DNA of 64,000 bases from an uncultured Parachlamydiaceae bacterium. GTDB taxonomy: Bacteria > Chlamydiota > Chlamydiia > Chlamydiales > Parachlamydiaceae. Shown here in pieces: positions 57,749 through 62,305 of the stretch. The stretch spans positions 1,216,001 to 1,280,000 of the forward strand of contig CAVULX010000004.1 in assembly GCA_963742415.1 (NCBI GenBank), given 5' to 3'. The notes under the pieces are model-generated. The model was not told the DNA's origin. It made no database searches and saw nothing but the letters and a program-made list of their open reading frames with translations. Position 1 is the first letter of the stretch. The number at the start of each line of letters is the position of its first letter. The translations under genes and the position numbers were made by a program.

Positions 57749-58465
57749 TTATTTAGCATTAAAATTAACAAATTGCATCAGCGGACTACACGTCGATCGC
57801 CCCCCTCCAGAATAAGCATCGACGACAACACCCGATTCTAAAAGATAGGCTTTTTCCAGAAGTTGAGAAGCAAAAGACATATCTTGCGTGGAAATCACAA
57901 CCCCTTTTCCCCTCTTGCACAAATCGCGTAAAATTAAGGCTAAGCTTTGCGTATTTTGAGGATCTAAAGCCGATGTCGGTTCATCGAAAAGCAACATCTG
58001 CGGATCCAAGGCTAAAGCACGGGCAATGGCGACACGCTGCTGCTGCCCGCCCGACAATTCATTCGGGTAAGCATCTCCATAAGAATCCATTCCCAACAAC
58101 TTAAGGACCTCCATCGCCTTGCTTCTGGCCTTATCAAACTTTTCCCCATACACTACTTTCAAAGGCTGCGCACAATTGTCTTGAGCTGTCAAATGGGGAA
58201 ATAATGCATAAGATTGTGGAATATAACTCACCAAGTGGGCCCTTTCCGGAGAAGACAAGCCTTTTAATGATCTCCCTTCATACTCAACAGCTCCTTCGTA
58301 ATCCCCTTCAAGCTGTGCTAGACATCGCAACAGGGAACTTTTTCCCGCTCCACTTTTTCCTAATAATAGAGTGATTTCCCCTCGAGGTACTTCAATTGAT
58401 ATATTCTGAAGGATTTCTTTCCTCTTAGTCCCCTTTGATAAATACAAATTTTTAGTTTTTAACAT
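57749..58465 (-). CDS. Polar amino-acid ABC transporter ATPase
   Basis: GKSGAGKS, LSGGQQQRVAIARAL and FDEPTSALDP motifs. Confidence 0.92.
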   Translation of the reverse strand: MLKTKNLYLSKGTKRKEILQNISIEVPRGEITLLLGKSGAGKSSLLRCLAQLEGDYEGAVEYEGRSLKGLSSPERAHLVSYIPQSYALFPHLTAQDNCAQPLKVVYGEKFDKARSKAMEVLKLLGMDSYGDAYPNELSGGQQQRVAIARALALDPQMLLFDEPTSALDPQNTQSLALILRDLCKRGKGVVISTQDMSFASQLLEKAYLLESGVVVDAYSGGGRSTCSPLMQFVNFNAK

Positions 58466-59123
58466 ACCGGAATCCTTTTTCTAGGTATTTTGAAAGATAA
58501 TTAAGGGCTCCTGAAATCCCCACATAAAAGAGCGCCACGGAAAGATAAACCACCAAGGGTTCCATTTCCCTAGAAACAATATTCATCCCCATTCTTGTTA
58601 GTTCCAAAAGTCCAATGGAGGAAAGGATGGCAGTGCTTTTCAACAGCGCATCCAGTTCATTGGTCAAGGCAGGCAAAACATTGCGCAACATTTGGGGAAA
58701 GATAATATGCCTGACACAATCCTTTGTGGAATAGCCTAGCGTCATGGCTGCTTCCCATTGATCAACAGGGATCGAATTGATTCCACAACGCACTACTTGC
58801 GCAACATAGCCTGAAGAGCAGATGCCCAACGCCAATACGGAAGCTGTAAAAGCTTCCATATGGATATTCAAAATATCGGGAATGACAAAGTAAGCAATGA
58901 GCAATTGCACATAAAAAGGGACCGCCCGCAGCACAAAAGTGATCCCCTCCAGGAAAGAAGAGAGCACGTTTATTCTTAGTCGATAGCATGTCAAAATCCC
59001 AAGGAGAGACCCAAGGCAAAGGCTAATGCATCCAGAAATTAACAAAATTTGCAACGTCATCCATGCCCCTTTCATCAGAAGGGGCATGGAACGGTAGACG
59101 AGGTCTAAATAGTTACTGTCCAC
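58452..59123 (-). CDS. Polar amino-acid ABC transporter permease (HisM/GlnP-type)
   Basis: R.VP..VQL, QWEAA.TLG, IIFPQ.LRNVLPAL.NE and LK.TAI motifs. Confidence 0.92.
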   Translation of the reverse strand: MDSNYLDLVYRSMPLLMKGAWMTLQILLISGCISLCLGSLLGILTCYRLRINVLSSFLEGITFVLRAVPFYVQLLIAYFVIPDILNIHMEAFTASVLALGICSSGYVAQVVRCGINSIPVDQWEAAMTLGYSTKDCVRHIIFPQMLRNVLPALTNELDALLKSTAILSSIGLLELTRMGMNIVSREMEPLVVYLSVALFYVGISGALNYLSKYLEKGFRYVKN

Positions 59124-59126
59124 TTG

Positions 59127-59897
59127 TTACCCTCCCGCTAAATTCCATTTTTTCTCCAGCTCTGCAATGACCCCTTCTTTACGCAGCTCATCGACAGCTT
59201 TCTTTACCAGAAGAATCAGCTTGCAGCTTTTTTTGTTGAGACAAACTCCATAGCCTAGAGATTGTTCTAAAGGGGGAAGAGGGGCTTCCATCACTTTTAG
59301 TTCAGGAAATTGCTGGGTTACAGTTGCAAGCAAAGAGGGATCGATCACCGTGGCAACCGATTTTCCATATTTGATTTCCATCATGGCATCCGTTACCTTG
59401 TCCACTTGCTTTAAGGCCAATCCCGGTACTTTCTGCAAAAAACTGTCTTGAAAAGAGCCGGCTTCAGCACAAATCACCATTTTGGGATTATTGGCCATCG
59501 ATTCCAGAGAAGTGACATTCTCAGGGATCTGTTTCCAAAAAAGCATCGGAAGTGAGGTCATTTTTCCCCCCTGATAATAGATCATCTCCATCTGCTTTTG
59601 TCGATCCTGCGTAATCGACATCCCCCAAATAAGGGCATCAATTTTTCCCTGCTTCAAAGCGAGAATCAAAGCGGGCATGCTGCCAAGATCTTTGAGGACC
59701 AAATCCCGATTGAGCTTTTTACTCAGCTCATTGGCAAAATCTATATCAAATCCCACATAGTCCCCCTTTTCATCTAGACTGACATAGGGAGCATAGGCGC
59801 TTGATGTTCCGACAACAAAATCTTCCGCAAACAGGGAAGAAAATAAACAGCTTCCAAAAAGGAGAGTAGAAATTGAATAAACAAAATAATTTTTCAT
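59127..59897 (-). CDS. Family 3 amino-acid ABC substrate-binding protein
   Basis: Signal peptide; VGTS..YAPY, GFDID, L.QGKID, MSIT.DR and L.KKW motifs; AAGGA RBS. Confidence 0.92.
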   Translation of the reverse strand: MKNYFVYSISTLLFGSCLFSSLFAEDFVVGTSSAYAPYVSLDEKGDYVGFDIDFANELSKKLNRDLVLKDLGSMPALILALKQGKIDALIWGMSITQDRQKQMEMIYYQGGKMTSLPMLFWKQIPENVTSLESMANNPKMVICAEAGSFQDSFLQKVPGLALKQVDKVTDAMMEIKYGKSVATVIDPSLLATVTQQFPELKVMEAPLPPLEQSLGYGVCLNKKSCKLILLVKKAVDELRKEGVIAELEKKWNLAGG

Positions 59898-59987
59898 GGT
59901 TTTTCCTTATAAATTTAAACTCGTTTAGCAAAAAAAAATTGCTAAGAAAATTAATAAAATCTAATAAACTAAAATATAACTTAGAAT

Positions 59988-60024
59988 TTGTAAGACTTTA
60001 GAGCGCTGCGCTTAAAGCTTACAA
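59988..60024 (-). promoter_or_regulatory. RNA hairpin immediately after the His leader stop codon (candidate attenuator structure)
   Basis: mRNA UUGUAAG CUUUA AGCG-CAG-CGCU C UAAAG U CUUACAA; second hairpin at 59925-59945. Confidence 0.6.
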
Positions 60025-60028
60025 TAGA

Positions 60029-60127
60029 TTATGAATGATGATGATGATGATGGAAGGAACGGAAAGAAAAAGCAAGATCAAGAGATAATTTTTGCTTATA
60101 ACTAAAATAACACATAATTTTACTCAT
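60029..60127 (-). CDS. His6 leader peptide (hisL-like), 32 aa
   Basis: MSKIMCYFSYKQKLSLDLAFSFRSFHHHHHHS*, GGGAGG RBS, 131 nt upstream of the SBP start. Confidence 0.75.
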   Translation of the reverse strand: MSKIMCYFSYKQKLSLDLAFSFRSFHHHHHHS

Positions 60128-60168
60128 GGTTTTAAATTCCTCCCATATAAAAGATAAAATTTTTCGTT

Positions 60169-60375: not shown

Positions 60376-60478
60376 AATCTTTTCAAATCTTTATTAATGC
60401 AATACTAGAAAAATCATAAAAAAATCTACCTTTAAATGCAAAGAAAATCTAATCTATACAAAAGTCAATATCACCTTT

Positions 60479-61779: not shown

Positions 61780-62090
61780 ATTATAAACTCCATTTATTAT
61801 ATTAATATTATTTTTAAAATAATTATTATATTATCTTTTTATTTTTTTGTAAATAGAAAAAACCTTGATATTACTAAATTTGTAAAATAAATGCAAGAAA
61901 ATAGTTAATAAAACATAAACATTTTCTTAATGTTAGCTTTAAATAGGTAGAAACTTACTCGGAAATAGAAAAATAGCTTTTATTCAAATTCTAATTTTTT
62001 TTTGATGATCGTTGGAATGAAAAATTTCCTCAATTTTCTCATAAATCCTCAATGATCTCGCTGGCTCCTCCTAAATAACTAGGTACAGGA

Positions 62091-62248
62091 AAGAACAGGA
62101 TAAGCAAGATCGTAAACGGCAGGATAAGCAAGATATTGAATAAAGAGTAAGAACATGCGGATATGATTAAGTTAAGATTGTTCAAAAAAATCGTTTTGTC
62201 TTTTATCCTGCTTATCCTGCCGTTTACGATCTTGCTTATCCTGTTTTT
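62091..62248. repeat. Family B palindromic element downstream of pyk
   Basis: AACAGGATAAGCAAGATCGTAAACGGCAGGATAAGCA with inverted arm; loop homologous to the 57488 copy. Confidence 0.88.
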
Positions 62249-62305
62249 TTCTTCTCTGTGTCTTCTAGACTAACTTCTCTAAAGTTTTTACATTCTTACA
62301 AGACT

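Follow-up and report, generated by a model that had tools for sequence, protein, structure and literature searches.

A short open reading frame (ORF) that ends in a run of histidine codons, located upstream of an amino-acid ABC transporter operon in the analyzed 64,000-nt stretch of DNA from an uncultured Parachlamydiaceae bacterium (below, the window), belongs to a family of leaders conserved in environmental Chlamydiota. The comparative analysis suggests that the His-run leader senses charged tRNA-His and switches on a predicted histidine importer when histidine is short, probably by shielding against Rho, and we consider this complete reading somewhat better than an even guess. Its core, sensing of histidine with expression turned on at starvation, is very likely, and a Rho-dependent or Rho-assisted output takes rather more than half of the confidence placed in that core.

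The leader and the operon in the window

The first-pass annotation of the locus had reported a His6 ORF with a GGGAGG ribosome-binding site, two hairpins and an operon encoding a substrate-binding protein (SBP), a permease and an ATPase; the coordinates and folds of all these elements have been reproduced (Table 1). The spacing between GGGAGG and the leader ATG is 11 nt, which is slightly long. The leader contains the sole run of six His codons on both strands of the 2.69-Mb genome, and this run is among just three perfect trinucleotide repeats of at least six units genome-wide. Moreover, it is the sole His match among the 35 rows that passed the filter in a scan of intergenic short ORFs (n=2677). 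The other His run in this genome, at C4:406799, is antisense within a 425-codon frame and was rejected as a leader. Short dispersed sequences are also found in this genome: a short repeat reading like ILLILPFTILLILFF occurs at 62039-62273 of the window and at C3:852574 and C4:130484, and three near-identical 12-aa ORFs starting with MLSKFFKKS (C4:547392, C4:84557 and C4:1232544), having downstream sequence in common, form a small dispersed repeat.

Table 1. Features of the His-run leader locus in the window and leader-bearing loci of other genomes
Feature	Position	Strand	Basis
Promoter-like site TTTGCA-18-TATGAT, the nearest one	60413..60442	minus	9/12 consensus matches
68-aa orphan ORF with a hydrophobic stretch, between the promoter-like site and the leader	60375-60169	minus	ORF list; unremarked in the first-pass annotation
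Leader Shine-Dalgarno (SD) sequence GGGAGG (60144-60139), part of the stem A 5' strand	60136..60146	minus	sequence, folding, covariation
Stem A, 11 bp, pairing the leader's own SD (60146-60136) with the 3' end of the tract (60060-60050)	60146-60136 with 60060-60050	minus	folding; new relative to the first-pass annotation
Leader ORF, 32 aa, ending in FRSF-HHHHHH-S-stop (TAA)	60127-60029	minus	sequence and ORF list
Pyrimidine tract 5' of the His run, candidate part of a Rho loading site	60053..60076	minus	composition over 61 leaders
Sensor, six CAT codons, G-free C-rich single strand	60052-60035	minus	sequence
Hairpin B, 16 bp, beginning 4 nt past the leader stop	60024-59988	minus	folding
U-rich tail 3' of hairpin B, likely release zone	59946..59987	minus	sequence
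Second small hairpin	59945-59925	minus	folding (-6.4 kcal/mol, z -3.5); also seen in some orthologues
SBP, family 3, ArtJ-related, predicted His-binding; SD AAGGA at 59908-59904	59127..59897	minus	PF00497
ABC permease, polar amino-acid type	58452..59123	minus	PF00528
ABC ATPase	57749..58465	minus	PF00005
his operons with a leader	L141, L159, L160, L161, L162 (genomes G405, G287, G304, G140, G290)		
Arg-run leaders before ArtJ-like SBP genes	L009, L010, L011, L128, L129, L132-L134, L136, L137, L125, L126, L007		

Hairpin B folds at -14.2 kcal/mol in a 46-nt piece (z -4.0), and none of 200 shuffled sequences equals it. It is likely a pause or weak terminator hairpin: a clean U-tract was not found directly after it, and the window leader does not pass a crude intrinsic-terminator test.

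Promoter-like sites are weak evidence taken alone, with three observed at the locus vs 4.1 in shuffles. Such a site is located within 130 nt of the leader ATG in 51 of 64 orthologous leaders and in three of 59 controls, the controls being coding DNA of unmatched composition. None was seen at this distance from the window leader, and transcription of the 68-aa ORF, leader and operon together likely begins from the site at 60413..60442. The 68-aa ORF has no match in Pfam or NCBIfam, occurs once in the genome, was not found at the other collected SBP loci, and occupies the position where orthologues have just the spacer between promoter and leader. It is probably a lineage-specific insertion outside the switch.

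Conservation of the leader upstream of SBP genes

In total, 140 loci were collected around relatives of the window SBP, of which 135 have a tblastn match and 124 are distinct (five loci with no match and 11 duplicates were left out). The relatives come mostly from Chlamydiae/Parachlamydiales metagenome-assembled genomes, some being labeled Verrucomicrobia or uncultured, and are treated here as environmental Chlamydiota. A leader was defined as a short upstream ORF with at least three His among its last ten codons. According to this definition, a His-run leader is present in 62 of the 124 distinct loci, all of them with the His-type binding pocket or a part thereof (see below); related loci are non-independent, and these counts include kin. 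A search for His runs upstream of orthologous SBP genes had been proposed in the first-pass annotation as a check, and it finds the leader at 58 of the 73 close orthologues (defined by a score of 200 bits or more and an upstream sequence of 250 nt or more), with one more at a locus with a shorter flank. At lower SBP scores there are two leaders among 23 loci with 140-200 bits and one among 22 below 140; these three fit the His group as well, since two share the pocket and the third, a fragment at a contig end, has 66% identity with the query. The remaining 42 loci below 200 bits, none of which has a His-type pocket, contain no leader.

The run is located 0-3 codons from the stop in all 62 leaders. 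The peptides are 17-44 aa long (median 25), contain 3-8 His and end 44-326 nt before the SBP gene, sharing little in length or sequence outside the run. The second downstream gene encodes an ATPase in 53 of 61 leader loci, as assigned by a crude motif tagger. The 58 leader-bearing genomes examined represent eight families and 38 genera.

No leader precedes 15 SBP genes that belong to the His-pocket group, and re-examination of 1.8-4.8 kb upstream of 14 of them revealed none; two His-rich short ORFs seen there are kilobases away in an unrelated context and were rejected. One leaderless gene (L181/L116 in G256) is divergent from what looks by eye like a hisS-aspS pair; upstream of this gene there is a His-rich stretch that may have decayed. 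In the SBP tree, from which L077 and L023 were left out, the base of the His group is poorly supported (0.195). A pattern scan across 401 genomes yielded 17 matches: four SBP leaders already found, two his-operon leaders, and 11 others rejected because leader anatomy is missing.

Leaders of histidine biosynthesis operons

The hisD gene was found in five of 400 Chlamydiota genomes scored, and in all five a His-run leader directly precedes the purH-hisI-G-E-D-C-B-H-F-A operon (gene names were assigned by Pfam for one operon, that of G405). Three of the five leaders are closely related to the MKQ-type SBP leaders, with which they have the hairpin in common. The G405 operon is flanked by transposase-like frames, as seen by eye, which suggests that it was gained laterally. 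In G290, near the his operon, there is also a His/Ser-rich 20-aa ORF (L162:12352-12414) before a permease of the Trp/Tyr family (PF03222; L168:475-1686).

A leader gating biosynthesis should open on starvation, and hence the same sign is expected for the importer. Among the 58 genomes with SBP leaders, hisD is present in one and urocanase in two. The genome considered here (84% complete) has no hisD match and contains a hutH-hutU-hutI-hutG-like operon (C4:1309469-1314879, plus strand). No run-type leader was seen upstream of this hut operon, of two tyrP genes or of two other SBP genes of this genome.

Arg-run leaders and the binding pocket

Thirteen ArtJ-like sister loci (32-38% identity) have a leader with an Arg run, and the leader of a fourteenth locus is a decayed one. 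All 58 Arg codons of these leaders are CGN, the pyrimidine tract is as in the His leaders, and His-run and Arg-run leaders are never mixed at one locus. Pocket residues of the SBPs change together with the leader type: proteins with His leaders have Ala36, Val39, Met74 and Trp91 in 58-60 of 60 cases (Val39 in 58, Met74 and Trp91 in 59 each), while those with Arg leaders have Pro36, Glu or Asp39, Phe74 and Ser91 in 13 of 13. The Arg leader at L133 is downstream of an argR-like gene, as judged by eye.

According to the available part of the description of the Thermotoga maritima arginine-binding protein (PMC4022495), Asp37 and Glu42 bind the guanidinium group, the chain lies sandwiched between Phe38 and Phe76, and Arg101 and Asp183 keep the backbone in place. 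The chain 6SVF, whose sequence fits the published numbering, served as the reference, and its alignment with the window SBP matches Asp37 to Ala34, Glu42 to Val39, Phe38 to Tyr35, Phe76 to Met74, Arg101 to Arg99 and Asp183 to Asp186. Compared with ArtJ and other arginine-binding proteins, the window SBP thus has neither the guanidinium-binding acids (Ala34 and Val39 instead) nor the second aromatic residue corresponding to Phe76 (Met74 instead). As judged from this alignment, the residues anchoring the amino acid are retained and the acids specific for Arg are lost, and the leader type suggests that the protein binds histidine.

The nearest solved relatives of the window SBP are chlamydial ArtJ structures (PDB 3DEL, 3N26, 3QAX; E 5e-45 to 3e-40), from which its pocket differs by APYV in place of PPFE, Met in place of Phe, and Trp in place of the small residue before GMS. 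The HisJ model gives 59.8 bits with the cut-off of 459, and an AlphaFold model from the single sequence (pLDDT 37) was left unused. For ArtJ in family f28, none of the four genomes examined, out of 29 matching, has a leader. A distant SBP paralogue group (L016-L019 and, in this genome, upstream of C4:534942, plus strand) has an argR-like gene directly upstream, as seen by eye, and no leader.

The first-pass annotation had proposed that a His-responsive leader controls an importer. The in-frame run in 62 of 124 loci, its presence at all five his operons, the occurrence of hisD in only one of 58 genomes and the loss of the Arg-specific acids in the SBP speak for this proposal, with the histidine specificity of the SBP being predicted.

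Other candidate leaders in this genome

Three brnQ genes of this genome have run-type or residue-rich ORFs upstream. The one before brnQ at C1:42291 (C1:42054-42155, plus strand) encodes a 33-aa Thr-rich peptide and is followed, after its TAA, by six U and a long hairpin, so that it is a candidate Thr-sensing leader of a similar layout. A Val-run leader (C3:883146-883015, minus strand) precedes another brnQ and has no clear terminator, and an Ile-rich leader (C3:556216-556136, minus strand) before a further brnQ has a classical GC terminator.

Composition and structure of the leader RNA

Composition, folding and terminator counts refer to 61 leaders unless another total is given, as L077, which has no SBP start, was left out. 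The 24 nt preceding the His run are 79% pyrimidine, with 32% C and 9% G. Four-fold degenerate sites in this tract are 82% pyrimidine vs 57% in SBP genes, and Ser codons of the leaders are TCN in 128 of 132 cases. The His codons are CAT in 269 of 305 cases (36 CAC), vs 68% CAT in the long ORFs of this genome. The stop context UAA-U is found in 42 of 61 leaders vs 138 of 1038 long ORFs of this genome, and at least five U occur within the first 8 nt past the stop in 46 of 62 leaders. The Arg leaders, having G-rich codons, have a C-richer strand past the stop (26% C and 6% G vs 18% C and 10% G in the His leaders). Judged by composition, a C-rich, G-poor single strand is thus present beneath or beside the stall site.

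Stem A is conserved among the His leaders. In 60 leaders, its cognate pairing averages -10.4 kcal/mol vs -8.7 kcal/mol for non-cognate combinations; among 28 representatives with less than 66% identity, cognate pairing is better in 24, and none of 5000 permutations is as good. The stem is present in 48 of 61 folding ensembles. Counted from the first His codon, its 3' strand has a median position of -11.5 to 0, and the footprint of a ribosome stalled at this codon would span it. In a subfamily of 13 members, RNAalifold recovered stem A with no guidance, and the A-U/G-C exchanges there change both sides. Fourteen Arg-type leaders show no cognate signal for this stem (p 0.65), and in one of the five his-operon leaders the pairing is worse than the non-cognate one.

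Of 60 orthologues, 54 have a hairpin of -4 kcal/mol or stronger in the first 75 nt past the stop, at a median distance of about 9 nt. Hairpin B has compensatory changes among orthologues, though they were counted on a structure drawn from one member, which favours this hairpin, and RNAalifold on subfamily 1 returned stem A and not hairpin B. For stem A plus hairpin B in one subfamily, the covariation score is reached by no shuffle out of 500, the control ignoring relatedness. The strand between the two elements is 20-59 nt long (median 32 nt).

Across the leaders, hairpin B forms with a probability of 0.84 in the free RNA and of 0.84-0.86 when a ribosome masks the His codons, and placing the ribosome at the stop gives 0.68. 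A drop in hairpin probability exceeding 0.3 results from a His-stalled ribosome in one of 54 leaders at most and from a ribosome at the stop in 15 of 54, leaving 39 undisturbed; in the window, the pairing probability falls from 0.96 to 0.55 with the ribosome placed at the stop. Neither the 5' end of the leader nor the segment from the tract to the stop shows cognate pairing with the hairpin arms or tail (p 0.06-0.99). The pairing of the tract with the SD of the SBP gene is no better for cognate than for non-cognate pairs (p 0.92; 0.20-0.35 in a second test), and masking of the leader changes the accessibility of this SD by 0.06 on average and raises it by more than 0.2 in just nine of 59 loci (L097 and L135, with doubtful starts, were left out of these SD analyses).

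The crude intrinsic-terminator test, which requires a hairpin and a U-tract, is passed by 16 of 61 His-SBP leaders, failed by 45, and passed by two of the five his-operon leaders; 38 of 1528 gene ends pass it at similar but non-identical settings. The expectation of the first-pass annotation that the output is not a classical terminator is supported: there is no clean U-tract and no antiterminator upon folding with the ribosome masked. Its suggestion of a translational output, in the form of occlusion of the SBP start, finds no support, and its other suggestion, a Rho-dependent output, is favoured as the probable one.

Proposed mechanism and alternative explanations

Since neither a hairpin swap nor occlusion of the downstream SD is supported, while the C-rich strand, the fast stop, stem A and the pause-like hairpin are conserved, we read the element as Rho-dependent or Rho-assisted attenuation. 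In this model, transcription of the pyrimidine tract would follow the loading of a ribosome at the leader SD. When histidine is plentiful, it would clear the CAU run and depart at UAA-U, and stem A would close and block re-initiation; for the E. coli trp leader, a stem that stops re-initiation at the leader has been reported. The bare G-poor CAU repeat and the U-rich strand would then load Rho, which would release the polymerase paused at hairpin B and the imperfect U-tail. When histidine is short, the ribosome would stall on the run and occupy the stem A 3' strand together with the C-rich strand; the SD would stay open, ribosomes would queue, and the polymerase would proceed into the SBP gene.

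Several observations count against the Rho output. In the OFF state, part of the pyrimidine tract is buried in stem A, and a quarter of the leaders resemble intrinsic terminators. Moreover, the Rho loading strand is usually quoted as 60-90 nt; the free strand is shorter than that, so Rho would need to bridge hairpin B. The rho gene is present in 56 of the 58 leader-bearing genomes (48 of 48 high-quality ones), and, being found in nearly every genome searched, it does not discriminate between the explanations. Also on the negative side are stem A, which has no cognate signal in the Arg leaders and pairs worse than non-cognate sequences in one his-operon leader, the 15 leaderless His-pocket genes, and the C. 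trachomatis ytgCR case with its opposite sign (PMC7755916; see below).

With the same sensor and sign, hairpin B and the U-rich tail may instead act as a weak intrinsic terminator, perhaps assisted by NusA or NusG, which stalled or queued ribosomes suppress in a Rho-independent way, either sterically or via a pairing missed by the folding model. Conservation of the hairpin with compensatory changes and the leaders that do have a hairpin with a U-tract (16 of 61, and two of five before his operons) agree with this, but the leader segments show no cognate pairing with the arms or tail, a stalled ribosome disturbs the hairpin in at most one of 54 cases, and the 45 leaders failing the terminator test include the one in the window, in a genome where a brnQ leader has a textbook GC terminator. 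We regard this explanation as unlikely. Control of RNA stability, with a stalled ribosome guarding the AU-rich strand past the stop from an RNase E-type cut or blocking nuclease scanning, and with hairpin B protecting the processed end, would account for the U-rich single strand that follows the stop at once (46 of 62 leaders) and precedes the hairpin; UAAUUU presumably fits the RNase E consensus. Such control leaves unexplained the pyrimidine selection at synonymous sites 5' of the run, as well as the C-rich strand past the stop in the Arg leaders, and is rather improbable. Metal binding by a small His-rich peptide, or a nascent-chain metal sensor like CruR, has even less in its favour: His runs, often with Cys, can bind metals, but the peptides have no conserved length or sequence outside the run, the run switches to Arg along with the pocket, the leader heads his operons, and synonymous sites are under selection at the RNA level, so that we give this function hardly any weight.

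The sign of the response could also be inverse, with a ribosome at the stop melting hairpin B and the importer being made when histidine is plentiful, to feed histidine catabolism. The hutHUIG genes in a genome with no hisD match keep this reading alive, and the fall of the hairpin probability with a ribosome at the stop (15 of 54 leaders, the window included) agrees with it; on the other side, the leader heads five of five biosynthetic his operons, urocanase is found in just two of 58 other leader-bearing genomes, and 39 of 54 hairpins are undisturbed, which makes the inverse sign very improbable. Finally, translational attenuation of the mycobacterial poly-Cys type, in which the vacated leader pairs with the SBP gene's ribosome-binding site, has a precedent in the available text of 10.1101/834739, and the pyrimidine tract is anti-SD-like. 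However, cognate pairing with the SBP SD does not exceed non-cognate pairing, and leader masking raises its accessibility by more than 0.2 in few loci (nine of 59), so that this output has only a small chance of being correct.

Relation to known leaders

The enterobacterial hisL leader senses charged tRNA-His through ribosome stalling. The window leader resembles it in being a short ORF with tandem His codons near the end, found before his genes in five relatives, and the signal and sign are likely shared. It has an SD and tandem cognate codons, as hisL-type leaders do; its position before genes of cognate synthesis or import is seen directly at the five his operons and, for the importer, follows the predicted specificity. 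Unlike hisL, it has no antiterminator, usually no clean intrinsic terminator, and a covarying stem over its own SD, and it is mostly found before an importer. An Rfam search up to E 10 gave eight weak matches, all far below the gathering score and none to a leader family, and the His_leader model was unmatched. As two defining hisL features and the Rfam match are lacking, the leader is not filed as a member of the hisL type.

In Proteobacteria and Firmicutes, his operons, transporters and hisS are already known to be preceded by His leaders that have a terminator and an antiterminator. The available parts of PMC9413887 and PMC2965389 describe this architecture in both phyla and, in Firmicutes, leaders before his operons, the hisZYX transporter and hisS paralogues. 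By these descriptions, the Firmicutes attenuators are similar to the window element in placing transport or synthesis under a His leader outside Proteobacteria, and differ in their terminator/antiterminator hairpins and in phylum. The proposed output, a ribosome near the end of an upstream ORF masking a Rho loading site, has precedents in tnaC, speFL and cruR as described in the consulted part of PMC12360218; cruR controls an importer with the sign proposed here. According to that text, these leaders sense a free ligand via a conserved arrest peptide, whereas the window leader has a codon run in an unconserved peptide and its use of Rho is predicted. No conserved arrest peptide was found in the 61 His leaders, as the peptide upstream of the run varies. 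For a charged-tRNA sensor combined with Rho output, the same text offers a partial precedent only, in hisL itself. The mycobacterial poly-Cys short ORFs (10.1101/834739, available text) are alike in the C-terminal codon run, the absence of a terminator/antiterminator pair, and reuse before several genes of the same amino acid, but they pair with the downstream SD, while the window leader pairs with its own.

For Chlamydiota, the literature search, which covered main texts, found no description of such an element, in agreement with the first-pass annotation; details relevant to novelty may also lie in the attenuator tables supplementing PMC2965389, in the lists of leader genes accompanying PMC4833913 and in subscription papers on comparative attenuation. 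In the parts seen, PMC4833913 and PMC8632094 mention Chlamydiota in passing only, and PMC2965389 assigns a function to almost none of the predicted chlamydial attenuators. In Chlamydia trachomatis, the available text of PMC7755916 describes trpL as atypical and untested, and ytgCR as a case where stalling at Trp codons leads to Rho-independent termination, with the opposite sign. New here are the link to his operons, the Arg sister group with the pocket switch, the covarying stem over the leader's own SD, and the tested absence of an antiterminator.

Implications

In a broader and more tentative reading, which we find a little more apt to fail than to hold, environmental chlamydiae may have phylum-wide, swappable codon-run attenuators that work with no antiterminator, where a self-silencing stem leaves a single pioneer ribosome to shield against Rho. 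The cassette would have been re-targeted between His and Arg (the Thr and Val leaders may belong here as well), and his operons acquired by horizontal transfer would have received it from importers. The run would name the substrate of the transporter, in this case a new His-binding branch of ArtJ.

Validated leader-peptide attenuation is considered to be missing from chlamydiae. The leader run may assign substrates to transporters annotated just as Arg/Gln-like, and the pairing of His and Arg leaders with their SBPs may represent a natural specificity switch. For a histidine auxotroph, such a leader would provide direct matching of uptake to host supply.
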